This document shows, in pieces, positions 1 through 39,500 of a stretch of DNA of 64,000 nucleotides. Origin of the DNA: Takakia lepidozioides (lineage: Eukaryota; Plantae; Bryophyta); contig CM060731.1 in the NCBI GenBank assembly GCA_030704615.1, positions 434,001 to 498,000 of the forward strand. Direction: 5' to 3'. The stretch's first letter is position 1, and every line of letters begins with the position of its first letter. The translations under genes were made by a program, and so were the position numbers. Under the pieces are notes generated by a model, which was given only the letters and a program-made list of their open reading frames with translations, was not told the origin of the DNA and searched no databases.

Positions 1-84
1 CCACTTGCTACCTGTACCATCTCGGTAGGCAGAGAGACCGTCAAGGGAAGTGCACTCCGCACTATACGTTGCTCAGCCATAGCC

Positions 85-1085
85 AAGCTGATAATCCAGG
101 TCAAGCAATTGAGATCCATTGTTTGCCCCAACAGCTGACGACGTGATGCCTCAGAAAGAGAAGACACTGCCGTGGTCCCAGTGGAAAATCCCATAGCCCA
201 ATCTCGCTCGTCGGCATTAGGCTCCACTAACTGTTGCAACTGGCTATCCCACAAGAGGCCCGGTCCACCATCCCGAAAAGCATGGGATCCTGGGAAGCTG
301 AGCAGTGTAGGTAATGCTGCTCGTGGTTGATCCACCCTGTTGACCACTGCCAAAGGCGAACGGTCATCGTGTCTCACACGTTGAGACTGCCTCCCTGTGT
401 CCAAAATGCCATCCACGGTGAGGTGTACTAGCCGCTGCACCCCATCAAATGCACGCTTGAGCAGTGCGGGTGGCATCAAGTTAGTCCACCAAAGCCGTGG
501 ACGATGAGCCCGTGACCCCACTGCAGCTGCATCCAGCAACACTACTGACCCAAGCCACGACCGGACTTGATGCACACTGGCCATCACCCTGGCCCGAGAA
601 TCACCCATCAGTGGCACATTCTCCAAGATGTATGTTGGAGATACAGCTTGATGAAGCTATGTAGTCCACCATGGCGTCGACGCTCAGCCTATACCAGGTT
701 CTGTCTGCCTTTGCCTCCGACTTGCCCGCATCATCTCCCAAAACAGACCCGTCCTCGAGTCTCGCAATCCATTGCCATGCCCGGCTGATGAATGCCCTTG
801 GCAGGGCCAACCTGCCACTACCAGATCAATGGAGCCAACTTGCTCCAAATCTTGCACCCCCAACAACGAAATGTCTGCTGGCAAGGCTTGTTGGTATCCA
901 CGAACTGCAGACACTGGCAACAAAACAGGGTACTGCTGTACCAACTGAGCAACATGGCGCAGTGAGACGCGTCATGCAGTCTCATCCCTCTCCACATACA
1001 GGTAACGTCGAACTCGTACACCTGCCTGTAGCACTGCAGCCAATCCAGTGCTGATCCCGCCAAACAAGTCCAGAAGGCATATGCC
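85..1085 (-). pseudogene. DNMT3-like C5 cytosine DNA methyltransferase domain inside the retrotransposon polyprotein
   Basis: Motif I LLDLFGGISTG (~1077-1045), II YVERD, III DISLL, IV DLVVAGWPCQGHS (WPC 809-801), VI YILENV (ENV 623-615), VIII DAAAVGSRAHRPRLWWTNL, IX EPNADERDWAMGFSTGTT, X SEASRRQLLGQTMDLNCL. The part below 656 was translated by hand because it is missing from the ORF track. Confidence 0.92.
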
Positions 1086-1489
1086 TTCATCCGGGCACTG
1101 CCACACAAGAGGTGTGGTGTCCAATGGCAACAACTGGGGTGGTCCTGGTGCAATCACCGCACTCTCCTCCTCTCCTGACGGTACGAAAGCTTCTACCCAA
1201 GCTTGTTGCACCCGTCCATCAGCAGCCTGCTGCAAATCCTTGCTCGTACTCCACAATGGAGTGTGAGCAACCATGGCAGGCAACTCCGCCATACCATGCA
1301 TGTCATCCTGTTCTGCTGGAGGTGGCACATCCTCTGCATGGGCATTGCCCTCCAGCAACTCTCCAGGCCAACTAACTGCAGCTGTAAAGGCGGCTAGTGT
1401 TGGCATCTTGCCCCGTTGGGCAGCCGCAATACCCCCAATGAATGTCACAGGGAGCTGTGCACGACGACCATCCCCTGACTGCCATCTAG

Positions 1490-1790
1490 GTCTGTAGGAT
1501 GCTGACTCCTCCCAAAAGTCCAGGGTGAAGCCCATGGGATATAACACTGCCCCACCAACGAGGACATTGTAAGAGACCGCGTCTGTCACAATGGCCTTGG
1601 CTCGCATCACTGAGCCATCTACAGGATGATTTGCTTGTAGTCCAATGGCCAACTCATGCCGTATCATGCCCCGAGCCTTATCCGCCTCCATGAGGCCCAA
1701 ACTTGCAATATCAGCTCTGCCCAACATCAGTGGCTGAGCTCCCGAGTCCAACAAGACCCGCAGTGGCCGGTACTTCTTGCTTGCCGGTCC
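1490..1790 (-). pseudogene. Retropepsin-type aspartic protease domain of the polyprotein
   Basis: RVLLDSGAQPLMLG (DSG at 1749-1741) and downstream YNVLVGGAVLYPMGFTLDF, the ILG-equivalent motif. Confidence 0.8.
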
Positions 1791-2381
1791 ACTCAAAGAG
1801 AAAATGCCATCCTGGTTGTCTAACAAGACAACTCCAGGTGTCACCATGGCGTGCTCAAAGGCTGGCCTAGCTGGCAGTTCCGTCAACCTGGCAGCTGCAG
1901 CTTGCCATGGCGCAGCCGTGGCAGTCTTGACCCTCAAATCTGAGGATCCCTCTGCCACTACACCTTCCAGTAACTCCACAGAAGATGAAGTGACCTCCCC
2001 ACTCTCACAAAGTGTTGCTGCTAGTCTGAACACTGCAGCTGGCCTTACCCCCAGCGTCGCAATCATGGTTGCTGAGAACAGTGGGGCTTGACATACAGAG
2101 GTGGCTGCCCCCAATAACACACCGGCTGCAGTAGCCTTGGTAGCAGGTGTCAGTGCTGCACGTGTAACTCTCCCCAATGGCATAGTAACCTCCGCCTCGG
2201 TAACAGTCGGGCGAGAACTAGGTGCCATGGATGGCGTCGACACAGTCTCCGCCAATGTGAATGACTGAGGAAGCCTCGCCTGATGGCTTGCCTGCCTACG
2301 CTGTGGATCCAATTCCACCTCTGCACCTCGTGGCTCAGGAACTCGTGCTGCTCCTCGAGTCACGGCTGCAGCAGATTCCAC

Positions 2382-3980
2382 CTACACTAGTGGTCCGCAC
2401 ATGAATCCCATGCCTCCCATATCTCCTCCCTCAGGAGCAGGAGGTGGACCATCCCGCCTTGGAGCCGGTACCACCTGAGCTATAGCCATGGCAGCGAGCC
2501 TCTGCTCTAGCTGCTGAAGCTTGTTGGCCATGCCTTGGTCAACACCCTGACCTCCGCGTCCTTGGCCATGTTGCGCTTGCCCTTGGCCTGCGCCTCGTGC
2601 CCGGCCACCTCGTCCTCTCTGGGCTGGTCCACCTCGCCCCCGGCCACCATTGTTCCCTTGGAACTGGCCTGGGCGCAACTCAGGATGCAAGTCATAACAC
2701 TGGGCATCTCCATGCCCGTACTTGCCATAATGCCCACACTGCAACTGTGTAGGCTGTGCTTATGCCGACCTTTTGCCACTCTCTGGGCAATCTCTCTTGA
2801 CATGGGGTCCTCCACATGTCCAACATATCACCCCTGGTTGTTGTTGGCTTGCAAAAGATGCTACTGGCCTCTGCACCTGAGGTCCCCTGTAAGCTCCATG
2901 AAATTTGGGTTGGGAAACCTTGCCCCCTTGACCACGCTGTTGGGCAGTCCCTTGTGCCTGTGGGCTGGTAGCTGCACCTCGTGCAGGCATGTCCTTGCCA
3001 AATCCAATGGTAACAACTCACTCCTCCACCATGTTGAGCTCAATCCGCTCAGCCAGCAGAAACACATCTGCTAATGTGGGTTGGGCTGCTTGTAACAGGG
3101 TTGCATCTCGCACCCTTCTCTTGAGCTCCTTGTCCAGAATTCCATACCAAAACTGGATTTCCTGAGCTTCAGTAACCCCTTGGGTCACACTTATCAAGCG
3201 TCTCATACGAGTGTACGCCTCTCGCATGCTCTCATTGGGTTTGCGCTGAAAGTCTTGCAAACTTCGCAGCTTCTTTGTCCGTACACCTTGGTAGTTCATC
3301 CGCAACTCCTGGAAGAACTCCACCACCGGGTTGAATCTAGGCACATGTGTTGTAGTCGTGGCAAGAGGAGTAGTAGCATCTTTTGAACTGGTACCACCTG
3401 CAGAAGTACCGGCACTACTTGTTCCACTACTAGTGCTGGCAGTGGGAGATATTGGTACTGATGCAGCTACTGGTCGCGTCGTGCCTCGAGTAATGGAGAC
3501 GTAGTCAGGTGACCAATACATCCTCCACTCCTCAATCTCTACTTTATGTCCTTGCCTGAACTCGTGGTAATCGTCCATAGGCGGGCCTTCCAAATGCTGG
3601 AACAGTCCCTTCCACGCCATGAATGGGGTGAATAGCTGTGGATTGCGCATCTGCTGCAAATCCCACCAGCTGTCGAACTCCTGGATAAAGTCATCCAACT
3701 CGATTGTGCCCACAGCTCCAGAATACCTACGAGGCCCCTTGGTAGCTCCATACATCTCCTCCATGTCGTCCCACAACAATGGCGAATGAAACTGCACACC
3801 TGTTGATGAAGCCTCCGAGTCTGTGTCTGACTCTGCACTAGTTGAGGGTGGAGGTGAAGGTGGTCTGAAACGAACACCTCGTCTGGTGAACCCACTCTCA
3901 CTGCTACTGCCTGTAGCCGTACTCCCCTCAGAACCCCTGGGTAACTCCGTGATGACACTCACAATGTGCACCTCCCCCAC
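2382..3980 (-). pseudogene. gag: Retrotransposon gag with two CCHC zinc knuckles, interrupted by in-frame stops
   Basis: Retrotrans_gag-like QRKPNESMREAYTRMRRL; knuckles CWTCGGPHVKRDC and degenerate CGHYGKYGHGDAQC; RGG-rich tail; stops at 3018-3020, 2760-2762, 2382-2384. Confidence 0.8.
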
Positions 3981-4557: not shown

Positions 4558-5224
4558 TGTAGGAGGTATATCTATGTCCAGAAACCTGCCACTAACCTTG
4601 TCCCACTACAGTAGCTCGCTCTAACCAACCCTCCTCCTCTTTCTGCCAGGTAGAGACAAAGCAATACTCCCCTATCTCCCGCTCATCCAGTGACCGTTAT
4701 AAAGGGAGAATACCCATGCACTTTCGTGTTACCGCTTTCAACACACAGAAGCCTAACTTGCCATTGCACCCTCGTGTTTCTCTCTCATCTTCACACAAAA
4801 CCCACAAGTGCTAAAAACTAATTAAGCTCACATCTTGCACTCACAGATGCAAACTCATCTCTCTCGAGTGATAGAACAAGCTAAGAGACACACTGTTCAC
4901 ACCAGAAACAACATGAAATCCATCGCTATCACTCGTTAAAACAGAAGTCGAGCCAGGGGCACCCCAAGCTATGGGGACTCCACCCCACAACAACCTATAC
5001 TCCCATCATAAGCACACTCAGTCCTAAACGATGCAGGAGCTCGGTCGCGCAGGCTCAACTTGAGAGAGATGAGCTGCGCGACTGCCGCTCTCGTGAAGAT
5101 AAGGCGGTTCAGGTGTCAAACTAAACTTGACACCTGATTTAACACTTGACCTAAATCCAAGTGTTAAATACAAATAACTAGCTTTATTCTAGTTGTTTTC
5201 ACACTGTGCTTATTTAACTTGACA
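4558..5224 (-). repeat. Putative 5' LTR of the methyltransferase-carrying element
   Basis: On the minus strand it starts TGTCAAG exactly where the flanking PPR frame (…HADIVKA) breaks off, and ends CCTCCTACA. It contains a TATA-like TTTATAA. The partner LTR is not in the window; an alternative outer end lies at 4992. Confidence 0.45.
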
Positions 5225-6185
5225 CAGCTTTGACGATGTCAGCATGGACCTCTTTCCCATTTTCCAGGGCTCCCAGGCTTGCACACGCATTGCAAACACC
5301 AACAAAGGTGATGTGGTTGGGCTTCACCGGCCCTTCGCGCAGCATTTGCTCATAGGTCTCCAAAGCATTCCTACCACACCCATGTTAAATCCTGCCAACA
5401 TTATATTCAACAATTGAGGCATTCCGTTGAACACTAGGTGTGCATTCATGATGCTCTTGCACTTAACATACATGTTCACAAGGGTGTTGAGGAGAAAAAC
5501 ACTTGGCGTGAATCCACTTTGGATAATGTGAGTGTGCACCTGCTTTCCAGCTTCCAGACCCTTCATTTTGACGCACTTACGCAAGAGATAGACATATATA
5601 TCTGAATCTGTTGAAATGCTCCTTGGTTTAAAGGTTGTAGAGCCTCTTTTCAGTATGCCTGCCTCACAAAGCATCTTCACATGCCCAGAAGAGCCAAAAG
5701 AGCCATTATGGACTCCCTCTCTTGATCCTCTTTTAGAAGCTGTGGTCATGGTTGAGGTGCCTGATTTAAATCAGGGCTGCCAGGCCTGCAATGCACACAA
5801 ACATGATGTGGCCGGGCTGAACCCCTTCCCCCTTCATTTGCTCATAGGTCTCCAAAGCCTCCATCCCATGTCCCTGCTGTGCATACCCTGCAAGCATCGC
5901 ACTCCACGACACCACATCTCGTTCAGCCATAGTGTTGAACACTCCCTTTGCATCCTCGATGCACCCACATTTTGCATACATGTCCACTAGGGTATTGTTC
6001 AAAATGACATTTGGTACAATTCCAGCTCTGAAGGTGTCACCATGGACCTCCTTCCTCGTTTCAAGAGCTGCCAGGGCAGTGTTTAGAATGACATTAGGTA
6101 CAATTCCAGCTTTGATGATATCCCCATGCACCTCTTTGCCCTTCTCAAGGGCTGCTAGGCTTGCACAAGCATTGCAATGCACACA
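5225..6185 (-). pseudogene. Scrambled PLS-class pentatricopeptide repeat (PPR) gene fragments
   Basis: P/L/S motifs such as VDMYAKCGCIEDAKGVFNTMAERDVVSWSAMLAGYAQQGHGMEALETYEQM and LEAGKQVHTHIIQSGFTPSVFLLNTLVNMYVKC. Frameshifts, an internal duplication, and an N-terminal-like piece lying downstream of internal repeats. Confidence 0.85.
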
Positions 6186-8500
6186 TGGGACAAAGTAGAA
6201 CAACAAGAAACCCACATCATAGAGGAGAGAGAGGTTCTCACCTTATCACGACCTTTGACAAACACAAGAATGGGTTGGTTGGTGTCAAGAGGGCGAGGTC
6301 GGATTCGGCTGCCACCAGAACAACAGGATTGGATGCAAGCATACGTTTTCTTGACAGAGGAACTTCCTCCTCTTCTTGGCCTACCACTTCGGGCATCAGC
6401 TCCTGCTCCTTCAAAGGATTCTCCTTATGTGTGATAAGTGCATGTGCCTCATCCCAAACTTGTCTCTCTGATAAGAATGCTTTGCTTGGACATTCAGCAA
6501 TTGATTCATACCTGCTCTCGGACTGGGGCCAGGCATACACACATCAGAAAGGAAGACAAAGGATATGCCACCAACTGTAACCCTTGGCCATAATACATTA
6601 AGGGTGTACTCCCTGCAGGATGCCTTTCTAGAGCTATTGTAAGGCTTTGAACCGCAATATATCAAACCAGGTCAAGAGTGCTGAATTGCTTACAACAATC
6701 CCAAAAAAAGGAACGCATGAGTAAGAGAGAGAGAGAGGGTAGACACTGGCTGAAACAGACAAGCCAGAAAGAGCAGAGAAGACTGCATACCTCTCTATGG
6801 GACAACTGCTGATCCATGCTTGGGTCAACTGGGAGAGATGAACTCTCTGCACACATGGAGGCCATCATTTGCTGGCGACTGAGGGTTTTCCCCTGTAACA
6901 ACATACCTTCTTGGAAGCTCAAAGTTTCAGCATGCATCTTATCTCCCACTGTCCTCTCAAGAGGAGACTCTACCACCGTCTCCAATATCTTCCCATTTAG
7001 GCTCTCTGTGTGCTCAATATATTTGTAAACTTATCTAGTTTCAAAGCCTCTGAGAGTGCTGCCCCATTTTTTGGTTGCAGTCCCCTTATTTGCTCTGGAT
7101 CTATGCTTGCACATGAGCCTCAACCTCCTTTCCCAGAGCTGATGAATGGTCAAAGTGTATTGCTGCAGCCATCGCCTCTTCTTTGTGGAGCATGGATACC
7201 ATATCATGTATATCTGATGAATTCTCCACTGATTTTTCTTCGTTTTCTGCAGATGCAACTTCCTCCATTCCTGTAGCTTTCACTTTTAGGAATGCCTCCT
7301 GCACTCTTACACACTAACCATTCACAACTTCTCCATGTTGGCCCCAGGTCTGCAATACATCCTCTTCGTTGTCTTGCTGCCAGGAAACCTTTGCTTTCTC
7401 AAAAATATCAATCATAGTCTCCATGACTGTAGGGTTGGAGTCTGCTACTGTTCCTTCTCTTGGACTGTTGAGTGAACTTTCCTTCATCAAAGGGGCAATT
7501 TGATATGTCAATGCTACCGGGGTGCTGGGTAAAAGCTCAGACTGTATTGTGTGTATCTCAAGCTGAGGTGCCTTTGTGTCCATTTCACTCGGTGATAGTG
7601 CAGGTGTAACTCCATCTATTCCTGCTGAGACAATCTCAGACTCTTTGAGGTTCAATAGCAAGCCCTCTCTCTCAGATGCATTTCCCTTCTGTGATTTGGA
7701 TTGTGAAGGATGTGGCTCTTCGGCAGTTGCAATATAAGCAATGTCGTCCTCCATCTTATCAAGCAGACATTGTGAATTCCCTGCCTGTTGGAATATTGCT
7801 CGCTCCAATATGGGGAAAAGATCCTGCTCTCCCTCAGCAGGTCTTCCACGAACATTGTGCACTCAACCCTCATAGCATCACCTTGATGCTCTTCAGTTTT
7901 GAAATAGAGGGATCTATCATCCATCCTCTCCACTATAGACTGTGTCTCCGAATCTAGGACCTCTGCACAAGCAGTCAGTTGGGGTCTGCCTCCTCTCTCT
8001 ACCACATTTTCCTCTGTCAAACATTTGTCCCCTTCAACCTCGAGCTTCTCTTGTTCAGATACTTCTTCCATACTTACCAGCTCAATAACTAATTCAGACG
8101 TCATTCCCTGCTCATTAACAGCAGCCTTCTCTACTTTGTGAATGCCGTCTTGTTCCTTGACAGTATCTCCCTCTGGCTCCCTCAAAACAGAGTACATTTG
8201 TCTAGCAAAGTGAGCATGCTTATTACCATCTAATATCTCTTTCTTGGAAATCCCTTCCAGCTCCATGGCTGCAGACTCCCCTTCCTCAGAAATTTTGGCC
8301 TTCTTAAGAACACCCACCTCAGTACTTTTGGTGTTCTCTGTAAGATCTATCTGGTCCACCTTAGAAACACATGGGTTGCTCTTCACAGTTGCCTCCTCCT
8401 CCATACACTTTAAGCCACCGTCTGCAATCCCTCCCACTTCACTTGTGAGAGGGCAAAACAGGCTGAAATAGGTCAAAGAAGAAGGTGCCCTCACCACATT
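6186..8500 (-). pseudogene. Degenerate acidic low-complexity ORF pieces, probably transposon-derived
   Basis: Consecutive E-rich ORFs (7652..8497, 7314..7862, 7101..7304, 6662..6985, 6238..6540) joined by frameshifts; no domain recognised. Confidence 0.3.
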
Positions 8501-12765: not shown

Positions 12766-13892
12766 TATTCTTGGCATGAGGTGCAGATTGCCTGTTCCTG
12801 GCAAGTGGGACACTATAGTTCCTAGCTGTTGAATGTTCCATGTGGTGCAACTGGGACACTAATACACTATAGTCCTGTACCTTATTTTGGCAGCATTGAT
12901 GGGCAACTTTGGCAAGGTTATGATGCTTCACGGACCCAACTTTTTGCATCCCAAGAGCTCGCAAAAAACGTGCACAATACAAATCCCTGTCAGAATATGC
13001 TAATGCTCACTTGAGCTGTGCAGGAACACTAGTGTACACTGTATAATCCGCTCACTTCCAGGATCCTTCCTGCTAACGTCACACTCACGTTTGCATGTGA
13101 GGGTATGCCTGCAGCTTATACTAGTGATGGGCTGCGGAGGAATACCTTTTTTATAATTATGCCGACCAGAGCAGTTCCAGGATCCTTCATGAATGCTAGA
13201 AATATGTTTGCCTGTTGATCCAGAGCTCAAAATCCTTGTTCAGCTGCACTACAGTCACTACCGACACGGTGGGTTCCATGTCAACTCGAATATAATGATA
13301 AGCTGTGCAGGAACACTATTTTATAATACTCTCACTTCCGAGATCCTTCCTGCAAGCTTACAAGTTACGCATACGTTTGCCGGTTGATCTGGAGCTGAAA
13401 TCCTTGATAAATCCTATATTGTGCCTTGAAGTTCTCAAATAAAAATCAGCCGTCGGGAACCATTTCTAGCGTCATCATTGTCTTTGTATCACACAATTTG
13501 TCGGTAAAAGATATACTTTTTTGGTTCGAGGCCGTTACAGTGTTTGCGGTAGTGCGCTACAGAACGCGTAAACAGAATCACCGTGTGTCCTCGCAATGGA
13601 GGCCAACGCGTTCCTGTTTCTTCGTGATTGCATATATAAGAAAGCTTTCTCCCCTTCCTCCTTCAGCTTTGAACATCCAGGCTCATCCCAAATTCTTCCA
13701 CATCGCTGCATTTGTACCTGCACACACTTGTGCACTCGAAGTTGATCTACAAGGCATTCCAATTGTCATCAAGCGATCTCAGTTTCCTTCTCTAAAAGTT
13801 TCGAGATCCTTTTCCTTCCAATCGTGGGGGCCACTTAATCAAGACAATTCTTGTGCTTGTGAGTGTGGGGGAGTAATCTACGTACTGACGGT

Positions 13893-14492
13893 ATGGCTTT
13901 TCTGCGGAACATTGATGAGTTTTTCTACGGGCGCCGAAGCGAACCCGGCTGGATCGTCAATAGCTCCAGGGATGTACCCTACTACTACGAGATTCGTGAA
14001 GCCAACCCTCACACCCACCATGTCTTCCCCTACATTACCGATGCGCTGCATAACAGTCACTCTCGCCACATACTTCCGGTAGTGGAGTTGAAGGTGCCCA
14101 TGTGCTGCGCCAAATGTGAAGAGAAGGTGAAGGAGGAGCTCCTGGAGCTGGAGGGGGTGTATGGAGTTGTGTGTGACCAATACACGCAGAAGGTGATTGT
14201 CTCTGGACATGTGGATCCTCTGCGTGCACTCAAGAAGGCCAAGCGAGTGAAGAAGAAATCTCAGTTGTGGCCAAGCCCTGCTTACCGCCAGTACGACGGG
14301 GAGTACAGTTCATCTGAGAGTCGGGGATACCTGCACCATGACCAGACAGAGTACAGATCCTCGCACAGCCGATACACCCCTGCATTTGGCCAATCTTACG
14401 TGCATTCGTACGGCCCATCTTACAGACAAGCCCACAGTCAGTCCATCATCACCAACCCCCATTATCTGAAGCACATTGAATCGGAGTATTGA
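13893..14492 (+). CDS. Heavy-metal-associated (HMA) domain protein, HPP-like, copy 1 (199 aa, intronless)
   Basis: VELKVPMCCAKCEEKVKEELLELEGVYGVVCDQYTQKVIVSGHVDPLRALKK. ATG at 13893 matches the starts of copies 2 and 3. No CaaX end. Confidence 0.9.
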   Translation: MAFLRNIDEFFYGRRSEPGWIVNSSRDVPYYYEIREANPHTHHVFPYITDALHNSHSRHILPVVELKVPMCCAKCEEKVKEELLELEGVYGVVCDQYTQKVIVSGHVDPLRALKKAKRVKKKSQLWPSPAYRQYDGEYSSSESRGYLHHDQTEYRSSHSRYTPAFGQSYVHSYGPSYRQAHSQSIITNPHYLKHIESEY

Positions 14493-17126: not shown

Positions 17127-17723
17127 TCAGTACTCCGATTCAATGTGCTTCAGATAATGCGGGTTGGTGATGATGGACTGACTGCTGGCTTGTCTGTAAG
17201 ATGGGCCGTACGAATGCACGTAAGATTGGCCAAATGCAGGTGTGTATCGGCTGTGCGAGGATGTGTAGTCTGTCTGCTCATGGTGCCGGTATCCCCGACT
17301 CTCACATGAACTGTACTCCCCGTCGTACTGGCGGTAACCAGGGCTCGGCCACAACTGAGATTTCTTCTTCACTCGCTTGGCCTTCTTGAGTGCGCGCAGA
17401 GGATCCACATGTCCAGAAACAATCACCTTCTGCGTGTATTGGTCACACAAAACTCCATACACCCCCTCCAGCTCCAGGAGCTCTTCCTTCACCTTCTCTT
17501 CACATTTGGCGCAGCACATGGGCACCATCAACTCCACTACCGGAAGCACGTGGCGAGAGTGACTGTTATGCAGCGCATGGGTAATGTAGGGGGAGACATG
17601 GTGGGTGTGAGGGAGGGCTTCACGAGTCTCGTAGTAGTAGGGTACATCCCTGGAGCTGTTCACAATCCAGCTGGGTTCGCTTCGGCGCCCGTAGAAAAAC
17701 CCATCATTCCGCAGAAAACCCAT
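17127..17723 (-). CDS. HMA domain protein, copy 2 (198 aa)
   Basis: Near-identical paralog of 13893..14492 with intact MCCAKC motif. Confidence 0.9.
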   Translation of the reverse strand: MGFLRNDGFFYGRRSEPSWIVNSSRDVPYYYETREALPHTHHVSPYITHALHNSHSRHVLPVVELMVPMCCAKCEEKVKEELLELEGVYGVLCDQYTQKVIVSGHVDPLRALKKAKRVKKKSQLWPSPGYRQYDGEYSSCESRGYRHHEQTDYTSSHSRYTPAFGQSYVHSYGPSYRQASSQSIITNPHYLKHIESEY

Positions 17724-19547
17724 ACCGTCAGTAGATCACTCCCTCACACTCACAAGCACAAGAATTGTCTTGATTAAGTGGCCCAACGATTGGAAGGAAA
17801 AGGATCTCAAACCTTTTAGAGAAGGGAACTGAGATCGCTTGATGACAATGGGATTGCCCTGTAGGTCAACTTCGAGTGCACAAGTGTGTGCAGGTACAAA
17901 TGCAGCGATGTGGAAGAATGTGGGATGAGCCTGGATGTTCAAAGCTGAAGGAGGAAGGGGAGTGAGCTTTCTTATATACAATCACGAAGAAACAGGAACG
18001 CGTTGCAGGGTGCACCGCCTCCATTGCGAGGACACACACACGGTGATTAGCAGTAAGGCATGGCAGTTGTGCTTTGCCTGTTTAGCGTTCTCTAGCGCAC
18101 CACAGCAACACTCTAACGGCCTCTCGACAGCCTTGAAACAAATCTATCTTTTAGTATTTACCGACAAAAAGTGTCGTTGCACACTAGTGCGATCTCTTGG
18201 CCGAGAAATTGGAAGGGTACAAAGACAATAATGACACTAGAATTGGTCTGGCAGAGAAACGTATATGTGTGTCAGACTGTAAGCAGGAAGGATCGCGGAA
18301 GTGAGGCTAACCTAGTGTTCCCGCACAGGTCATCATTATATTCTGACAGATATGTGTACGTATTTGTGCACGTTTTGTGTGAGCTCTTGGGCCGCAAAAA
18401 GTTGGGGCATACAGCCCTGTCAAACCCTGTCATCATCTTCCTGGTTCCCCACAATCCTTGCCAAGGACTCTCTTATTTGTGTACTCTGTGTTGTGGAAGT
18501 TTGAGTTACATACCTATCACTGCAAAGGCCCCGAACCAACCAAATAAATCTCATCACTTAAATTACAGTCGTTCTTGCACATAATTGTCTCTTGGGAGAA
18601 ATGGCAATGATACAAAGATCATTAGCAATGACACGAGCTTGACCGTCTATATACTTTCCCTTTCCTTCTCAATCATGTGACATTAGAAATAGTCTGGCTC
18701 GTTGTTTCGTCCTGATTTCAGCACCCCACCGCACTGTAGTGCTTTACGACGATTGAGCTCCGGATCAACAGGCAAACTTATTTCTAGCATGTTCAAAGTG
18801 AGCCTTGCATTATGAATTAGTGTTCCGCCACAGCCCATCGATATAAGCTGCATATTCTACAGGCAAACGTCTGTGTAACATTTACATAAGCAGCAAGAAG
18901 GATCTCTGAAGTTTAAGTTACAATAGGTAGTGTTCCTGTGCACAGCTCATCAATATATTCTGACACCCGGTGATTCGTAGATTTGTGCACGTTTTGTGCT
19001 TGATCTTGGGATGCAAAAAGCCACAGGTCACCCGTAAAGCATAGCCTGCCCAAAAACGAAAGGAAAAAGAAAAATATAGCCTGCCAAACCCTGTCACGCT
19101 CACGATCTTCTCCATCAATCCTGCCTGGTAGACTCATCATTTGGGTTCAGTGTGTTGTGGGAGTTTGAGCTCTGTAGTCGTCCCTAAGCCTTGCTATGCT
19201 TGTGGGTCAGACCTTAACGCTGACCTGGCGATCTTGGCTACGCTGATGAATGAGTTCCTCCAGTTTATCAAGAGGCGTTTTTCTAGGGTCTAATAGATCA
19301 CCCTACACAAAATCATCAGCTGTTCCTTCCTTTCCATCAATAGTGGCATGAACATTACAAGGTATGAATTCAACTTGAGCATGCCATGATTCATGAAAAA
19401 TGAAATGAATGCTGCCACTACATAGGTTTTGTCCAATCCCACTAGCCATGCACTTATGCTTTCATAAGAGCGGTTCTAAAAGGCCACTCATGTTTTTGGC
19501 GTAGGTATCACTGCGCCTATGGCCCACAAGACAATACCCTGAACACT

Positions 19548-20309
19548 GTGGAGGTAACAGAGGCTATGCGTGCGAAGAAATGGCGTGCAGGTCCACCAAA
19601 GAAAAGGGGGAGAAAGCCTACAGTGGGGCCAACATCCACAGGAAAAAAGCCTAAACAAAAAATGACTACAAACAACAAAACAGGAGAAGGCATCAAAAGA
19701 GGATGCATGTGCCGATTTGCTGTCAAGCAATGCTACTTGGACCCTGCTATGGCAGAGATAATTTATTATGAGAAACAACATGTAAATGGAAGAGGTCAGA
19801 TATGCCACGGACCTTCATGTCACTTGAACCGATGTGCAATGGCTCCCCATCTTAGCGATGACATGAAATCATGGATTTTGCACAATTTGCGTCTTGGGCT
19901 GAGCATAAACAAGATAATGGCCAAGCACACCATGCGAGTGAAGGAGTTGATGGAGCAAGGGCTGGATGTCAGCCGTGACACTTTTCTCCTCTCCCATGAC
20001 ATACGGAATATTGCGAAGCGATGTGATGAAGAGACATTCAAAAAACACCCAAATGATGCACAGAGTGTCCGCATGTGGGTGCATGAAAATATGGCTAGTG
20101 TTTTCTACTACCAAGAAGAAAAGAACCACAAAGCTTGGACATCTAGTGACATCAAACTTGATCTTCCATTCGTTCTTGGCATACAGACAGTGTGGCAGCG
20201 AGATCAAATGTTGAAATTTGGCCATCACCGAATTGTCGCATGTGACGCCACCTTCGGAACCAATGAGAAGAAGGTGGGATCTGTCTTTTTACTTCATTGC
20301 AATCGTTGA
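19548..20309 (+). mobile_element. Mutator-like (MULE) transposase fragment
   Basis: KRGCMCRFAVK…H…CHG WRKY/GCM1-like region, KHPNDAQSVRMWV, and PFVLGIQTVWQRDQMLKFGHHRIVACDATFGTN (first catalytic D). The rest of the DDE domain is not seen. Confidence 0.75.
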
Positions 20310-23300: not shown

Positions 23301-23935
23301 GTCTACCCACCCATTGCCCTTCGTCTCTGGCTGTAGCCTAGCTAACCTCGCCACACCTCTACAACAGCCTCCCTCCAATCTAGAACCTTGCCCACATGCA
23401 ATAGCCACCTTCTGAACATGCAATATCCATGTGGGGCCGCATGCAAATAGCCACTTGCATAGTTATTTTATGTCTTTGTATCGTTCCAATTTCTCCCAAG
23501 AGATCGCACTAGTGTGCCTTTTGTCGGTAAGACATTCACTGGTTGGCTCGAGGCCGGTACAGTGTTTGCTGTAGTGCGCTAGAGAACGCGTAAACAGGCA
23601 AAGCACAGCTGCCATGCCTTCCTGCTAATCACCGTGTGCGTGTGTCCTCGCAATGGAGGCGGTGCACCCTGCTACGCGTTCCTGTTTCTTTGTGATTGTA
23701 TATAAGAAAGCTTACTCCCCTTCCTCCTTCAGCTTTGAACATCCAGGCTCATCCCACATTCTTCCACATCGCTGCATTTGTACCTGCACACACTTGTGCA
23801 CTCGAAGTTGATCTACATGTAGGGCAGTCCCATTGTCATCAAGCTCTCAGTTCCCTTCTCTACAATCGTGGGGCCACTTCCTCACTTCAGACAATTCTTG
23901 TGTTTGTGAGTGTGAGGGAGTGATCTACTGACACT

Positions 23936-24532
23936 ATGGCTTTTCTGCGGAACGATGAGTTTTTCTACGGGCGCCGAAGCGAACCCGGCTGGATTGTGAA
24001 CAGCTCCAGGGATGTACCCTACTACTACGAGACTCGTGAAGCCCTCCCTCACACCCACCATGTCTCCCCCTACATTACCCATGCGCTGCATAACAGTCAC
24101 TCTCGCCACGTGCTTCCGGTAGTGGAGTTGATGGTGCCCATGTGCTGCGCCAAATGTGAAGAGAAGGTGAAGGAAGAGCTCCTGGAGCTGGAGGGGGTGT
24201 ATGGAGTTGTGTGTGACCAATACACGCAGAAGGTGATTGTCTCTGGACATGTGGATCCTCTGCGTGCACTCAAGAAGGCCAAGCGAGTGAAGAAGAAATC
24301 TCAGTTGTGGCCGAGCCCTGCTTACCGCCATTACGACGGGGAGTACAGTTCATGTGAGAGTCGGGGATACCGGCAGCATGAGCAGACCGACTACAGATCC
24401 TCGCACAGCCGATACACACCTGCATTTGGCCAATCCTACGTGCATTCGTACGGCCCATATTACAGACAAGCCCACAGTCAGTCCATCATCACCAACCCCC
24501 ATTATCTGAAGCACATGGAATCGGAGTACTGA
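23936..24532 (+). CDS. HMA domain protein, copy 3 (198 aa)
   Basis: Near-identical paralog, closest to copy 2 (shared YETREALPHTHHVSPYITH and VELMVP). Confidence 0.9.
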   Translation: MAFLRNDEFFYGRRSEPGWIVNSSRDVPYYYETREALPHTHHVSPYITHALHNSHSRHVLPVVELMVPMCCAKCEEKVKEELLELEGVYGVVCDQYTQKVIVSGHVDPLRALKKAKRVKKKSQLWPSPAYRHYDGEYSSCESRGYRQHEQTDYRSSHSRYTPAFGQSYVHSYGPYYRQAHSQSIITNPHYLKHMESEY

Positions 24533-25812: not shown

Positions 25813-28800
25813 CTACGAAAAGGTGCTTGTAATAAGCTTGTCAATGTCAGGCGTGAGGACCAAGCGCTGGCCCACATCTCCAAGAAAGCAGCATTGTTTT
25901 GACGTAGGATTCACAGCTGCTAGTTCTTGAGCAAATACACACTCTGTGCCTGGTAGTGCCTGCCATTTGTTACATAATGCATCAGTCACATCCAAATTTT
26001 ATGACCAACACTACATACATGAATGGTGTGTGACTAGACTTTCACCCTGTGGCATGCGCAGTTCTATATGATGTGACAACCTTGTCAGTGTCGCTATGGA
26101 CTGCAAGCTCATTCACATGTTTCTGAACTGCATTGAAATACTATGGTGTTTGTAAGCTTGAAAAGAATGGAGTCCATCCTGCTACAACAGACAGGGTGCA
26201 AGAATATCACAGAAATGCTCTGGTAAGTTCCGGGAAGTCTTCCTATCCAAGTACACATTGAGACTTATGTCAAATATATGATGACTTGTCCATTGAGGAC
26301 CTGCCTTTCATCAGGAGTCCCTCCTTTTAGATGTTAAATCAAACATTGCAAACACATTTGCCATACTACTTACTTTCAACATGATAATTCAGATACATTT
26401 TCTGTTAAAGCTACATAGAGCATGAAAATGATGATGCAACTGCGTTGGGATCTCTGCATGGCACTTACATCTAGAATGACATCCCCAAGCTGCAACTTGA
26501 TGGCTCCACTTTCATAGACCAAAAGCTTGCCCATGCAGCCTTCTGGCAGCTTCTCCAATTTGATGATACCATCACCAATTCTCCGGCCTTCCTTGCTGCC
26601 TGCATTGCTGCTGGTGGCCCGATCCACATCCACAACACCTTTCGAGAAGGAACTGAGTGGCAGTGAAGTAGGAATCTGGAAAAAGAGAAGCCTGTCACCT
26701 TCTCGCCTTTCCTGCATGAAAATCCATTTATCTCAGACAACACATCTAATCGCCAGTGCAGAGCACAGATTGCAAAACAGCACTCTCACGCCTTTCACAA
26801 GGAGAGTGGCACCAGGGGGAGACCTGGGTACCTTCGTGTTGCTCTAGATTATAGGCGAACTCACATATAGGTCAAGTTCTTCAGCAGGGGCGACTGCATC
26901 CTCATCATGAATCCTGCTTGCTGCCTCCTCTCCAAACTCCTCTTCATCCAACAACTCTGGACACCACCACATGTCATCCTCAGGATTCTCCACCTCCGGT
27001 TCAGTTCCAAGTGAACGGGATAATGCACAGTTCTATCATTTCACATGTGACTTACCAAACACGGGAGTCCTCCTCATGTTATCATAACTGACACCCTCTG
27101 CAGCACCAATGTTGCAACACAATAGTACATAGGCCTTACTGGCTACTGAGTCATTCTAGCTGCCATGGTTCCTCATTCTTCTGAAGATTTCATGAACCGC
27201 TTCGCTAAAATTAGGGATTTTGTGTAATTTTTGCGAGGCAGACCTGAAATTCCAGACATTGGTCTTCGAAGTGGAAGTGTCACAGGGTAATACTTGGAGT
27301 CATCCTGCAACCATATCATAAAGCACTCAGAAGGAAACTGTAAGCCAGATGAATCGTAACACTACAATGACGGAGGTATATTCCATGTCTTCACCAACTA
27401 TAACGTAAGAGAGAACAGCATATCTGAATTGCACCCATTGACTGGTGAGACAGAGATTCAACATACAGCGTACCAGGGGCTCCACTACGTTCTTTGACTT
27501 TCCCAAGTTTGCATCAAAAAACGGGTCACCTGCAATCACCAGCATATAGGCATTGTTCCACCTGAATCATCCAGAAAATAAACATGGTGTTGATATAGCC
27601 TAGCAATGACGACTGATCACAGAGAGACTGACAGTGAGAAAAACAGATAAAGAGGCAACCAAGAGAGCAAAGAAGGGTCTTTCTGAAACACCAGTCCTCT
27701 GGTTCCTGATGACTTCAACAAACTGTGCCAACGTACCATTCCTCACTACCAAGTTACCCTCATGACAGACCGCTCATCAGCCCAATTGGCAGTACTTGGT
27801 TAGGGTATAAACTGAAACATCAAATCAACTACAGTTTTATATACCGGAAAGACTCTATCATAGAAACTGAAAACACTATGTACCTTGCGCAAATGGCTTT
27901 TGGTTGGTTCCACTCCGCCCTCCCCCTCCAGTCCCACCTCCCCCTCCACTACTTTTGTGATTACCAGCACCGGCAAATGCTGCAGCTCGACCAGCAGTAG
28001 CTGACCCATATCCAAATGCAACCCGCGTTTGGCCTGTTTCCAAAATATAACCCTTAGTTTCTTAAGCACAGTGGGGCAAAGAGGGGCTCGTGCCGCCTGA
28101 ACAATCACTCATGAACAAAACTTTCAACCATGTTTCATATTCTGCTTGTGACAGTTGAAGTTAGCTGGTCCAGCTGTTATGAATAAGTGCATAAAAAAAA
28201 GTTGACCGCATGTTAGAGGCAAGACATGTCTTCAGTTTCCGCATAGCGACACAATTGGAAACACAAATAGCACACTTGAATTCACAAATGACTTGCTTTG
28301 ACACCTGTCTCTTTCATTTCACCTGGCCTGAGCCAAATGACCAACAGCAACGAAATTGGATAGGCCAGGCAAACAGGAAATGTACCCTTGCGGTCAGGCC
28401 CAAATCGCCGGCCTTGTGCCCCGGCATCCTCCTGAGATTGCTGTAGACACTTACAAAACTTCTAATGAGTGAAGTATTTTACGGTGGCAAAATAACTACA
28501 CTGAAGAAGGCTATCACAGTTCTGCAATATAGGATATGAAAATAGAAACTCAATGCAAAGCCACCTGTTACATGAAATAGCGAAACAGTCTTCGTTGCCC
28601 TTCTGCCCAACCTTCAATTACCAAAGTTTACTTAGTTTCTCTTTATCATAGATATCTGCAGTCTTTTCTTTCTATCTTGCAATCCATGAATGTCTCCTAG
28701 CTAAACAACTGTCAAGCCGTTTAAGCCTGGAATTCTATGCAAATCACTACAGGTGAGGCAGCTTCACTGGAGGGTAGACATGCTCAGATTGTGGAAAGGA

Positions 28801-33500: not shown

Positions 33501-36500
33501 TCTCTAGGTATGTTCTGCAAGCCTTCTCTATTACTGTTAACTGTGAAAAGTCCCTTGTTGCAACTGGTAATGTGGCTTTCAATCTGTTTCTATCTGTCTT
33601 CCCTGCTGAAGTGTTGAAGGCCATGTTGGCAAAGGAACAAAACAAAGTTAGGCAATAGAACTTCAACTTATTTCCAGTTTGTGACATGGGTGAGGACCTC
33701 AAGGATGATCTGAAGGGCCTACCTACTGTTGGCACCAGACTATTGAACTCAGGGCGGGGAGTCTACCTTTGAACAATAAACAGATGCAGAGAGGAAAGGG
33801 AGATTGTTAATGCCCAGTGTGCAGGTGGCCTGAAGACTATCCATTTTCTGATTCAGTGTCCGAGGTATTCTCATCAGAGAGTGACCCTCTTCAGGACCAT
33901 CAAGAACATAGGCCCTGCAGCTGTGTTCACCAACTTTCAAATTCTTGAGGCTGAGCCTAAAGCCCTGGCTGTTGGGGTCTAATTGCTGGGCAACTCATAC
34001 ACAGCAGATCGATGCTTGTGTGAAGGGATTCCTAGAGGAAATCTGGAAAGCCCAACCAATTGTATACCAAGGTAAGTCCCCTTACGGAGGGAGCCCCTCA
34101 CAAAGGTAGTGTCTGTTCCCTCTTGTTCTGCCCAAACTGGGCGTGGGGTCGATGGCCACAAGGCTATGACAAACAACGACTTATGAGTACATTCTATCTG
34201 TCTTCCCTTGCTCTAAACCATCCACTGATGAGCTAGGAGAGAGGGGTACTGGGGCAGCCTAGGAACGGCAGGGCTGAATGAAGACGGTCAACAGATGCAG
34301 CAGCTTGCGGATGCCTGCTTGGTCATTAACGGTCTTGACCCCTCAGTAAAAGAAGAGCTCATCCGCAATGTTTGCAGCAAGGAGCTCACTGCATATCAAC
34401 AGATTTTTCAGGGAACAGGTGATTCATTGGGTGTAATATTCATGACGTCTCTTTTGGTCATTTGTTCCACCTTCCGTTCATGCCTTTTTACCTTCTATCT
34501 TTTCTTTCCTTTCTTGTCAGATGCAAGGAGGGTTCTTGATTATCTGTTAGCAGGTTTACCTCCGGTGCATCATCTTGTTTTGTGTTGGCAGATGGACTGA
34601 CAATGTATATCTCCAAAGAAATCCTTCTTATTGGTGTTACTTGGACACATACTTGGGGTCTGAAAGATGTGGTTACTAGGCCCATGGGACCAAATGAGAA
34701 TTCTAAGATTGCAATGTCGTCTGTTGTTTGTAATGACACAGAGGTGGCAAAATTGGACAAGACAGAACGAAGGTATGCGTGGATAAAGCGACAATTACGA
34801 GCCAATGAAGAAGTTTGGTCCATTTTCCCACAAAGTTGGCTTGTGGCTCACACACTCTGTATACAATTTTGCAAAGTGACAAGGTAGGCCAAATACCTTG
34901 TGGAGTCTTATGTCATTTTGTGGGTCTTTTTCCTGAACTGTAGGGAGACACGGTCAGAGAACAGGAAACGACTGATAGTTTGACTGCTTGCTTTGCTTAT
35001 TGTCGCAGCATATCGAAGCAGCCTATTTTTCTGCAATAGTGACATTGTGTAAATAGTCTATAGAGGTCTCTGCTTGAAATATGAGGGTGAACTTGGGTTG
35101 GTATTGCAGGGCACAGTTGATGGAAATTTTGGATACAGCACAACCAAAGCCTGATGTAGCAACTCTGCTCCAGGTGAATTCAGAATTCGAGTAGATTTGA
35201 ATCCCTGTGGTTCCCAGATATACCATAGTTCAAAGCCTGCAATGATATTTATGGATGTGGTTCAGTGTGAACTTAAGTACAATCGTAGAGCAAATATGAC
35301 TGCCTCCAGTTCAGGTACCAGATTTACTAGATAGTACTTCGTAAGTATTGTGACAAGGGGATTCTGCCACCTTGGATGACGGTCATATCTCACTCTTTCC
35401 ACAGTGTGGCTGTTACATTATCTGATTCAGCTCACATTCAAAGTTCTGACTAGGATCTAGTTCCTTTTGAGAGTGACTCTGTGCCTAAACAGAGTGTGTA
35501 AATTTACCGGAACGAAAGCTGGTTCACATTGGGTTCATGAGTATGGTGATAATTTGAGGATAGTGGATGCAGGCAAACTAATGGGTGTGTTACTCAGGAA
35601 ATCATGGAATGAATCCTTCCCTACTTGCAGGCGCTGCAACGTACTCTCGAGTTCGAGGATGAGCTAGCTGAGAGGTTTGGTGGGGGTGAGAGTGCCAAGA
35701 AGATGGAAGAAGAAAGCGATGATGAAGGCTTTGATGCAACAGATGGAGAGCTTACAGCCGCAGCAATTCGCAAAAAATATCAGAAGCAATTTAAATTGGT
35801 ATGCACTTCTTACTTCCTATTTCCTTCTGTTGTCTTCAGTCCTCTTCAATCATAGAGAGTGGTTCTTGAGTAAATTTCTATTTTTCTGCACAATGCTGCC
35901 CGAGTCTGTGCTGTGATGCCTCGGTTGACAAGTTTTGTGATCTGGTATGCCTACAGCAAAGTGAAGGAGAGAAGGCCAAACAGGACACTGTCAATGCCAG
36001 GGTGAATTCCAACGCTGTTTGGGATCTGTGTTATGATTGCAGTGTGTTCTGGTTCTCTTTGGCAGGCTAATGTCTGTCTATAGTCAAAGACGTGTCTCAT
36101 CCAATATTCTTTAACACTTTGAAACTCTTTTGGGGTCTTTCGGGCAACTGTCTGTAAATAGTTGCATAGTTTTCAACCATCTATTGCTCAGGATTGTTCA
36201 GTCCAGAAAAATCCACCAATTTGCACATGAGAAAGTTACAGCAGAAATTTTATATGAAATGTTGAACTGACGCACTTATTGGGAGTTCTCTTTTTCATGT
36301 GACATCTTTTTTTTGCAGTAAATCTCTTGGTGTGTCTCTGCTTGTCCCTGTTTCCTTCTATTTTACATATTTAGTGAGTGACCTTTATATGTGATATAGT
36401 CATTATGTGTTTTCTTGTTGAGAGAAATTAAACATGGTGACATGCCAGTTTACGTTAAAAAATTGCTCAGCTGTTTTGTTCATCTCTGCAGGTGCAATAT

Positions 36501-39500
36501 ACTTGTTGTAGTTTCATCCAATCTACCTGCAGACTTATCGACAAATGAAACCTTTCTGTCCAAAAACATTAAAGTGGAGATAAGCTGAAAATGGTCGTTC
36601 TGAAGGTCTGAAGTTGATCATAACAGTGTTGAACCTATCCAAGCTGTGAAGAAATGAATTCATACTGTGTTGCTCTGAAGGAATTTACATCCTTATCTTG
36701 CAGGCAACAATGAATTTCAACTTCCAGGGTACTATATCATCCTGCTTCGAGCCCCACTTGTTGATCTATGTCGAGCTTGAAGAAAAGACACTGATGGAGG
36801 CCCTGGACAAGCTCATTATGGTATGCTCCGCCCTCTGCCTCCTGTCCTTTGTTTTTTAATTAGACCGTTATTAAATAGACGATCTCTTTCTTTTACCTAG
36901 GGGATGAAAGAAGCAATGGAGTTTTTCCCTAGGCTTCGCAGCAGCACCTTAAGATGCCATGAGATGGTAGGGAATCTCTGAATTTACCTGAAAGGGGTGG
37001 CCAATTACAGATAGATGCCTTACGCCTCGCCGCAGTATACCACCTTGCATTTTGCTGGTTTGGAACCCCAGTAGTTGGCAGAGTAAAGGTCTTGGTAGTC
37101 GGTCCATGGTGAAGTATACTTAGGCTTAATGTAATGTGTTCCGTTATTAAGAGTTGGAAGTTTATGACTATGTCGTTGGATTTTGAACAGGAGGAGACGT
37201 GGGATTGTGAAGAAGGCAGCCAGACAAATGTCCTCTCAAGCAGCACTCAGGTGTGTGTGTGTGTCTCTCTCTCTCTCAGTCCTGGGTCCCTTTTGTTCTG
37301 CCCAAACTGGGCATGGGGTCTATGGCCACAAAGCTACGGCAAACAATGTCTTATGAGTACATTCTCTCAACCCTGGTAGGCGCAAACCCCACAAAAGGCT
37401 CCAGCATTCTCTCTTCCCCGGTGGTTGGTTAGATTCCCGCAGGGTCGATGGCCTTAAGGTTTTGGCAAGCCAAAGTCCACAGGGAACGGCATGAGTAGAT
37501 TGTGCGCCGGGTCCATGGCCACAAGGCTATGGCAGAGAACATCTTATGAGTACATTTTCTCTTAATATTTGCTTACCTACATCAAAAGAGAGGGAAATGT
37601 AGTGAACTTACTATTTGCAGATCTTTTGGCTTGACACGTGAGTCTTAATAAGTTGCAGTGTTAAATCCAAGCAGGTTTTCTTGATTATAAAGAGGAGCTT
37701 AAAGCGTTGCAGTGCCCTGACTCGCAATCAGACCCTCTTCAACTTATATAAGGTATTATCCCAGCTGCTTTTCATTCTTTATGAGACATGATAATTATTG
37801 ATCACTTGTCCAACCTAAATTCACCTATGTAAGGTTTTGAAATGTCATCTTTATCAGTGAACTGCAGCAGACCAATCTTTGGCTGTACTTACAATCTCCA
37901 TGTGGTGAGGCAGGTTTTCCAGAGAGTACTTAGAGCATATGCAGGAAGGCTTGTCACTCGGCTGCCCAGAGGACAGCCTGGCCTTGTGACTGGCATGGAG
38001 GGGCAACTCAAGGTTTGGACATTTAATTATGCTCTCTTTCTCTATCATAGGCCCTTCAGGCCTTTTTCTTGAACTTATTTTTCTTTCGGCATTGTTATTA
38101 TGGCTCTGGTTTTGTTTCCTCTCTCATGTTTTTTGTTTTCCATTTTGGCCCATAAGCTCTTTGAGCTTTCCGCGGACGTCATAAAGTACCATTCATTTCA
38201 TTTCCTTTCTCTCCCCTCTGTGGGCATAAACTGTCAGTGAGTACAAAATATCATCTATAATGCTACTCGTATGCTTGTCCCCAAGGGACAGGTGTCTCTA
38301 GTCTACTTCTAAGACATGAATACCTTTTGTTTGTTTGGGCGGGGATGACCTGCAGGTTTCAGACAAAGATGAGAGGGTGATCTGCTACATTGTAAATACA
38401 GCTGAATACTGCCATGAGACGGTGATTCCTTACTATATTCTACCTGATCTCCAAAAAGTTTCACAGGCCTATGAGATGTAGTCTGAAGAATATGAAGCTT
38501 TCTACATAATTGTAATATAATGTACTCGTATTCTGTAGCCTTTTGTGGCCATAGACCCCATAATTGCAATATAAATAACGATGAGAGCGGGGAGGAGTTC
38601 TGCCCAAGTAAAACTACAAGAGAGAGGGAGAGGTATCTGACCGTTCTGCCAATAGACTCCGTACCTGGTTTGGACAAAGCACAGAGAGAGAGAAAAAAAT
38701 GTACTCATAAAACGTTGATTGCCCCCAGAATGTACTCATAAGACGTTGTTTGCCGTAGCCTTGTGGCCATTGACCCCGCGCCCAGTTTGAGCGGAAACCA
38801 AAGGGACAGAACCTACCTCTGTCAGGGGCTGACATTGGTAGTAAGACTTACCTTTATAAATAGAATTAATTCGGGTTTTCCAGATATCCTCTAGAAATCC
38901 CTTCACACAAGCATCAATCTGCTGTGTGTGATTTGCCCAAAAACTAGGCCTCAGAAGGGCCTGGGCTTTTGGCTCAGCCTCGAGACTTTCAAAGTTGGTA
39001 AGCAGAGGTACAGGCACAATTCTCTTGATAGATTGGAGGAGAGCTTCTCTCTGGTGAGAGTACCCCGGACAGTGAATCAGAAAATGAATATTGTCTTCGG
39101 GTTGCCCACACAACGGGCAATTGCACTCTCCCTTTCCTCTCTGCTTCTGTTTACTGTTCAAATGTAGGCTTCCTGCCCTGAGTTTAAATTTCAGTCTGGT
39201 GCCGAGAGTGGGTAGACCCTTGAGGTCATCCATGATATCCTCCCCCAAGTCACAGACTGGAAACAGGTTCAGGGAAGTTTTCTGCCTAACTTCATTTGCA
39301 TCAGACAATTTGCTGGTAACAGACATGGCTTTGGACACTACAGTCTCTAAGTCAGATTTATCCAGCAAGGTCAAGACTTGCGGGTCCAGATTCAGATCCT
39401 TGAGAATCTCTTCTACTCTCTTCTGCCAGGACTTAGCCTGTTTGACAGGGCGGTCCTGTTTCCAAGATATAGAGTCGATTAACTTAGGGTATCTGGTGTT

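Follow-up and report, generated by a model that had tools for sequence, protein, structure and literature searches.

A dead Takakia retrotransposon copy and its relatives: a bryophyte Ty3/Gypsy family with a DNMT3-like methyltransferase upstream of a conserved stop codon

The DNA analysed here is a 64,000-nt stretch of Takakia lepidozioides (assembly GCA_030704615.1, contig CM060731.1, positions 434,001 to 498,000; below called the window), and it carries on the minus strand at its left edge a retrotransposon copy that encodes a DNA methyltransferase (MTase). The copy is a decayed, dead member of a many-copy Ty3/Gypsy family. In its relatives the order of the domains is gag, protease (PR), MTase, a stop codon, reverse transcriptase (RT), RNase H (RH), integrase (IN) and a PHD finger, and we consider it fairly probable that this arrangement lets the element make its MTase at capsid levels and use the enzyme on its own new DNA.

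A single minus-strand register from 3986 to 3 (1328 codons) holds gag, two zinc knuckles, the aspartic protease and a complete, unpermuted cytosine-5 (C5) MTase, just as a preliminary description of this DNA had it, provided that the translation is read with X at the stop codons. That description had also taken the frame to be continuous and open to the window edge and had let the element begin at 3980, and neither of these points held: six in-frame stops are found (3020, 2762, 2384, 974, 686 and 659), and the 5' end of the element is at 5224 (TGTCA), directly after a broken pentatricopeptide repeat (PPR) gene. The protease is shortened to 130 codons as compared with 147 reference residues, and about 67 bases at about 658-726 in the MTase replace a shorter stretch and are skipped by the other contigs of the family. 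The C5 motifs I to X, located between 1073 and 123, are in the order that had been proposed, and the domain matches PF00145 (E 6.7e-8). The matches of gag to PF03732 (E 0.07) and of the protease to PF13650 (E 0.06) are weak; the gag part shows 63% to the gag region of the Marchantia polymorpha protein P0007. No RT, RNase H, integrase or second copy of the MTase element was found in the 64-kb window, in which the tail after the MTase is 18 residues long up to the edge, compared with 73 in Marchantia. By analogy with the relatives, the conserved stop and the RT of this copy would lie beyond position 1. The features of the window copy are collected in Table 1.

Judged from sequence profiles and a structural model, the element MTase is DNMT3-like, in agreement with the preliminary description. 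The best PDB sequence matches of the window domain were DNMT3A/B, and a family profile placed DNMT3A/B (E 1e-21 to 1e-17) far ahead of DRM (6e-10) and M.HhaI (2e-7). The model of a natural relative, P0125 (pLDDT 87), had DNMT3A/B as its best Foldseek matches, with fold Z scores of 27.9 for DNMT3B, 24.4 for M.MpeI, 21.9 for M.HhaI, 18.2 for DNMT1 and 17.7 for ZMET2. Identity with DRM, CMT or MET1 was rejected from the motif order, the profile ranks and the fold ranks. Of 100 full-length MTase domains, 96 retain the catalytic Cys, all have the Glu-Asn of motif VI, and 96 and 99 have the one and the other Arg of motif VIII. Between loci with open frames the MTase dN/dS was 0.14 (L030/L050, dS 0.25) and 0.12 (L030/L035), with a similar value of 0.10 for the protease; deeper locus pairs were near saturation, and protease comparisons with the window, in which the alignment was out of frame, were left out. 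The MTase domain is under purifying selection between lineages, and the values lie well away from the dN/dS near 1 that had been named as a contrary outcome.

The order Gag-PR-MTase-RT-RH-IN-PHD was found in 80 of 220 confirmed loci, and where at least 700 nt were available downstream of the MTase, RT, RH or IN followed in 44 of 48 loci. The clearest case, L030, is unbroken and consists of a 1369-codon frame, a single TAG, and 1047 codons in register containing RT, RH, integrase and PHD. Open relatives of a dead copy had been anticipated, and the six stops of the window together with the two long frames of L030 agree with this. Likewise, RT-RNaseH-integrase and a matching 3' long terminal repeat (LTR) had been expected; the domains are present in relatives, whereas two matching LTRs are not, the ends being split repeats (see below). 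None of the three contrary outcomes that had been named, a lack of RT/integrase or of a second LTR downstream, other family members without the MTase (a one-off insertion) or a dN/dS near 1 across copies, was borne out.

In 39 of 41 loci the MTase and the RT are separated by an in-frame stop at the homologous place; of the two others, L043 has a sense codon there and L062 a deletion. The MTase therefore belongs to the Gag-protease frame and not, as first described, to a gag-pol frame. The codon after the stop is CAA or CAG in 39/39 loci. Exact TAG-CAR-YYA is present in L030, L050, L035 and L009 in three spellings (TAG CAG TTA twice, TAG CAA TCA and TAG CAA CCA), while the other contexts are TAA CAA CCA (1), TAG CAA CCT (1) and CAA CCC (33 of the 39 loci). 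Many of the 33 CAA CCC loci are the same insertions repeated, so the independent evidence amounts to four subfamilies, three of them with exact UAG-CAR-YYA. Codon pairs of the CAR-YYA type occur at 5-8 of about 1800-2400 in-frame positions. UAG-CAR-YYA is the type I signal of tobacco mosaic virus (TMV), which drives readthrough in plants (PMC2754532); the three subfamilies share this stop context, but here it stands between MTase and RT, and the largest subfamily has CAA CCC instead. At every locus free of indels the MTase and RT frames are in register. The first Met of the second frame is at residue 117 in L030, 14 in L035 and 48 in L009, and because it differs in this way there is no shared internal start. 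Five full-length Marchantia models stop 73 residues past the MTase domain, and 13/13 unnamed near-length proteins (P0020-P0030, P0032 and P0033) end 79-138 residues past it.

The MTase searches returned 5 longer, 48 near-length and 611 shorter relatives as well as 201 clusters at 50% identity (E below 1e-30), and the MTase family is a many-copy family and not a one-off. Named land-plant relatives are Marchantia polymorpha, M. paleacea, Riccia sorocarpa, Calypogeia fissa, Sphagnum fallax, S. troendelagicum and S. tenellum; more distant ones come from Klebsormidium nitens, Closterium, Monoraphidium and Scenedesmus. With the domain found family-wide and with relatives in liverworts and mosses, the suggestion of an MTase element in a land plant is well founded. 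No named vascular plant was among the matches listed (120 of the 611 shorter relatives, with 30 clusters looked up), which does not amount to a survey. Compared with the window, the Marchantia polymorpha protein P0007 shows 53% identity over the whole frame and 68% in the MTase, and no fewer than five nearly identical gene models of this species cover the first frame in full length; the MTase domain of Marchantia Mp4g09160 is naturally intact. Contigs from three public DNA data sets covered the MTase to the same depth as gag, hundreds of times above the flank at 6294-6500, a ratio which is not a copy number, and one of the runs may stem from the source itself. In a run guessed to be RNA the element was thinly and patchily covered, and this gives no expression evidence either way. 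NCBI lists one relative, P0151, under a metagenome-assembled genome of bacterial origin; since the end of this protein agrees with the first frame of L050, it is likely plant contamination of the bacterial bin.

Quick, unrooted MTase and RT trees without any cellular DNMT3 sequence placed the window MTase with Marchantia, Calypogeia and Sphagnum (support 99). The stop-bearing elements together with Marchantia form an RT clade (support 99), outside which are Klebsormidium and other elements without the stop; the position of the Klebsormidium protein P0045 was unstable between trees. P0003-P0006, P0260 and others have a different arrangement, in which a single frame reads RT-RH-MTase-IN-PHD. This second type has its own clade in both the MTase and the RT trees, includes a Scenedesmus pol, and was seen in full in 24 of 138 new representative proteins; our literature search on such elements in chlorophytes found no report. 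Three of these algal-type polyproteins (P0004, P0005 and P0006) share an extra C-terminal domain without a Pfam match and with the motifs DP-[WF]-x-G and VMSPF/IVTSPW/IITSPW, which from its sequence may be a second methyltransferase-like fold. As relatives reach charophytes and chlorophytes and DUF3444 is absent, the MTase was not captured recently from the cellular DNMT3 of its host. Any derivation from a host DNMT3 would rest, by analogy, on the tree of de Mendoza et al. for Klebsormidium.

Ordinary paired LTRs were not found in the MTase element family. L013, L021 and L046 instead have the layout A (339 bp) - body - purine tract - B (113 bp) - A - B, other copies have A - body - tract - B, and in L025 the layout is cut by the contig end. 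The termini are TGTC...GACA; target duplications of 4 bp are exact in L013, L021, L024, L041, L056 and L061 and match at 3/4 in L037, while L046 has lost its 5' tip. In the window, GCTG precedes the 5' end at 5224. The internal junction of B with A reads GACAGCTGTC, a palindrome, in L013, L025 and L035, and L030 differs from it by a single change. Given that the purine tract marks the start of B and the primer site the end of A, reverse transcription would yield the repeat in the order B-A. The split ends, the 4-bp duplications and the palindromic joint are, in our slightly favoured interpretation, best explained by integration from circles; a search of the literature on circle junctions found no report. 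DIRS or Ngaro identity was rejected from the rve and H2C2 integrase domains and the 4-bp target duplications. Beside the main copy in L046, pieces of a more distant MTase-bearing element were seen at 4622-5038 (-) and 17942-19067, and two subfamilies therefore share one genome.

By the self-priming rule of Neumann et al. (PMC6317226), 10 nt or more of the 5' repeat should be able to pair with sequence that begins 0-5 nt past the end of this repeat. In the window, 5073-5058 pairs with 4869-4854 at 15 of 16 positions, including a perfect arm of 12 nt that was reached by 0/20 shuffles, and the fold of 4840-5080 has a z of -4.8. The arms of L013 and L030 are 17 and 16 nt long and in the same register as in the window, with different sequences; those of L021 and L025 measure 11 and 10 nt, all in agreement with that rule, the repeat end of the window being set by analogy. 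A TATA-like box is found about 30 bases before the arm in L013 and L030, none being clear in the window, and no tRNA gene was found in the 64 kb.

From these data the working of the element may be pictured as follows. Most ribosomes would halt after the MTase, and a minority would, quite probably, read through the TMV-type signal and produce RT and integrase; readthrough between pol and env is known from SIRE1. The stop placement implies a demand for the enzyme in amounts like those of Gag, which is informative as to its function. The protease would free the MTase within the particle, where the element RNA very likely serves as the primer for its reverse transcription, in the manner of Tf1. 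The resulting cDNA, B-A-body-B-A, would circularize, and integrase may, by a rather narrow preference on our part, cut the inner palindromic B|A joint with loss of the two middle bases and so give A-body-B-A-B; a one-repeat circle cut likewise would give A-body-B. With about even odds in our estimate, the MTase would methylate the cDNA ahead of its integration, and a new copy would thus arrive marked. The PHD finger could steer integration.

Several observations weigh against this account. The window itself ends before the stop, the RT and the 3' end, all of which were seen in relatives only. Concerning the stop, the main rival to readthrough is that a spliced RNA, a separate RNA or reinitiation supplies the second frame (RT-RH-IN-PHD), with the stop as a true terminator, and we regard this as unlikely. 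Ogre elements, in which a stop-bearing region is spliced out, are a precedent, and the Marchantia models P0009, P0012, P0015 and P0019 have predicted splices that cross the stop and join MTase to RT; these are placed differently between models, however, and one of them deletes the RT start. The largest subfamily, which is Sphagnum-like and has CAA CCC (33/39 loci), departs from the TMV consensus at the final base and has an ATG three codons past the stop; no Met is common to the starts of the second frame. The frames that stay in register at every indel-free locus, the invariant CAR and the occurrence of the exact TMV hexamer in three subfamilies that are divergent also argue for readthrough. 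A further alternative is that a one-off retrocopy of a host DNMT3, or a bacterial gene, drifts as a passenger in an ordinary Gypsy element. Phage MTases are indeed similar (E 1e-15, 28-31% over about 60%, also in the ESM Atlas), L080 has protease and RT without the MTase, and dN/dS among close decayed copies is 0.4-1.0. In L080 the RT start is missing too, and a deletion is therefore likely; the high dN/dS among close dead copies results from decay after insertion. The MTase holds the same position in liverwort, moss and Klebsormidium relatives, dN/dS is about 0.1 between lineages, and DUF3444, present in cellular plant DNMT3 (PMC6453930), had no Pfam match in P0001, P0007, P0020 or L030. A host DNMT3 retrocopy was rejected on these grounds, and the passenger explanation as a whole is very improbable.

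As to the ends, the decayed copies L021, L025 and L046 have weak self-primer arms or, in L046, none, and A-body-B could also be obtained by recombination between two B copies. With respect to the enzyme, it may act after integration or in trans, silencing its own or rival insertions, or serve as a structural nucleic-acid binder in the particle, an alternative that we find doubtful but deserving of attention. Production at the Gag level would supply far more enzyme than one cDNA needs, and no compositional trace of cDNA methylation was seen: the CpG observed/expected ratio of the element (0.47) equals the host background, for which a long interspersed nuclear element (LINE) and the rest of the window gave 0.45-0.48, so that composition gives no sign of self-methylation. 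In addition, no methylation was detected in yeast with the domain from Klebsormidium, a result that PMC5890265 calls inconclusive. On the other hand, all catalytic residues are kept, contrary to what a purely structural role would suggest, and in the chlorophyte-type elements the MTase is placed between RH and integrase and is thereby tied to the cDNA machinery. Methylation of the cDNA is in our opinion the likeliest role, ahead of action after integration or of binding, with about even chances of being the right one.

Elements of this kind are known, and what is likely new is the host range together with the expression and integration strategy. The nearest known system is KnitGypsy-Dnmt3 (Gypsy-DNMT3) of Klebsormidium nitens, described by de Mendoza et al. 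in 2018 (PMC5890265) as having the DNMT in the Pol frame, DIRS-like repeats and an acquisition in the Klebsormidium lineage. Common to both are a Gypsy element with a DNMT3-like domain that lacks introns, has its motifs unpermuted and its catalytic residues kept, and is under purifying selection, the RT-RH-integrase order (here in related loci) and the DIRS-like A-coding-B-A-B repeats (here in L013, L021 and L046). The Klebsormidium protein KFL_009030040 (P0045), presumably one of the element copies of that paper, reads PR-MTase-RT-RH-IN, has 42% MTase identity to the window and lacks the stop. Thus the DNMT shares a frame with RT there, whereas a conserved stop separates them in 39/41 related loci here, and the host is an alga there and a land plant here; mention of self-priming, 4-bp duplications, a palindromic joint or a PHD finger was not found in the parts of PMC5890265 covered. 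SymbioDIRS-Dnmt3, from the same paper, is likewise a retroelement-borne DNMT3 with A-coding-B-A-B repeats and methylates CG in yeast, but it has a tyrosine recombinase where our elements have an rve integrase and target duplications. The Tcn1 and Tf1-sushi chromoviruses (Neumann et al. 2019, PMC6317226) are similar in their Ty3/Gypsy order, predicted self-priming and occurrence in mosses; they differ by their paired LTRs, not found here, and the present elements have a PHD finger after the integrase and no Chromo match. The main text of PMC6317226 does not mention a methyltransferase or PHD. Cellular bryophyte DNMT3 (PpDNMT3a/b, PMC6453930) has the same unpermuted DNMT3-type catalytic domain and differs by its DUF3444, of which none was seen here. 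PHD fingers are known in Chlamydomonas Gypsy elements. Later papers speak of 'streptophytes' (PMC12344493; bioRxiv 10.64898/2026.05.21.726589), and their trees may include land-plant copies; the family was not found in the passages covered of bioRxiv 10.1101/363937, PMC11982613, PMC9940879, PMC6673714 and PMC10508981. No report of an MTase element in a land plant (bryophyte) was found in the literature covered, with theses, Repbase and subscription journals outside this scope.

Why retrotransposons carry an enzyme that silences them has been an open question since 2018, with an alga without genetics as the sole example on the plant side. Marchantia polymorpha, having near-identical full-length first-frame models and methylation mutants, makes substrate, context and purpose testable. 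The ends suggest a circular substrate for the integrase, a departure from the textbook route. For annotation, copies of the MTase element inflate the counts of 'DNMT3' genes in bryophytes, and they escape finders that need two matching LTRs. Very tentatively, since the full scenario is in our estimate rather improbable as a whole, an ancient green-plant Gypsy lineage from chlorophytes to liverworts and mosses may have kept one captured DNMT3 all along, with a land-plant branch that moved the MTase above a leaky stop, loads it into every particle, methylates its cDNA and integrates from circles cut at an inner palindrome, and with young copies in Marchantia. Such an element would be self-methylating and would at the same time combine an integrase with a circular intermediate.

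Table 1 Features of the MTase element copy in the Takakia window
Feature	Position	Strand	Remarks
5' terminal repeat A	4869..5224	-	starts TGTCA and ends TCA like repeat A of related loci; 3' boundary set by analogy
putative self-primer	5058..5073	-	16 nt in repeat A; 15/16 complementary to the primer-binding position, 12 unbroken
putative primer-binding site	4854..4869	-	without tRNA-type TGG start; same register in L013 and L030
gag, capsid region	2991..3890	-	first Met 3764; homology with relatives from near 3890
two zinc knuckles	2825-2787 and 2738-2697	-	second damaged, Tyr replacing its second Cys; RGG-rich stretch next
aspartic protease	1437..1826	-	LLDSG at 1754-1731; in-frame deletion in the window copy
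DNMT3-like C5 MTase domain	57..1082	-	motifs I-X unpermuted; three stops and replaced stretch 658-726
MTase motif I	1073-1044	-	canonical order
MTase motif IV GWPCQG	812-795	-	canonical order
MTase motif VI ENVP	623-612	-	canonical order
MTase motif VIII	512-477	-	canonical order
MTase motif IX	209-186	-	canonical order
MTase motif X	143-123	-	canonical order
linker start after MTase	1..56	-	runs off the window edge

In the remainder of the window, the broken PPR gene (Pfam) covers 5225-6242 (-), directly before the 5' end of the element; PPR coverage was very deep both in the DNA runs and in the putative RNA run, which suggests a large PPR expansion in the host. Exons of two host genes were recognized, RPC4 at 26376-26732 (-) and VPS53 at 34540-34887 (+). 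The neighbours of the element (PPR, an HMA protein, VPS53 and RPC4) mark the host as a land plant, with the HMA-domain gene placed no more closely than Streptophyta, and the tree makes a bryophyte likely. A gene with an HMA domain is present in three copies that are 94-97% identical and share flanks, at 13863-14492 (+), 17127-17735 (-) and 23924-24532 (+), one being inverted. The LINE-like element, with an RT, is located at 55950-60210 (-) and has three tandem repeats of 141 bp in its first frame (59342-59764), and a truncated second LINE-like copy is found at 38727-39877 (-). Finally, a 287-codon frame at 19446-20309 (+) has no Pfam match and resembles what we take to be a transposase fragment of the Mutator-like element (MULE) type.

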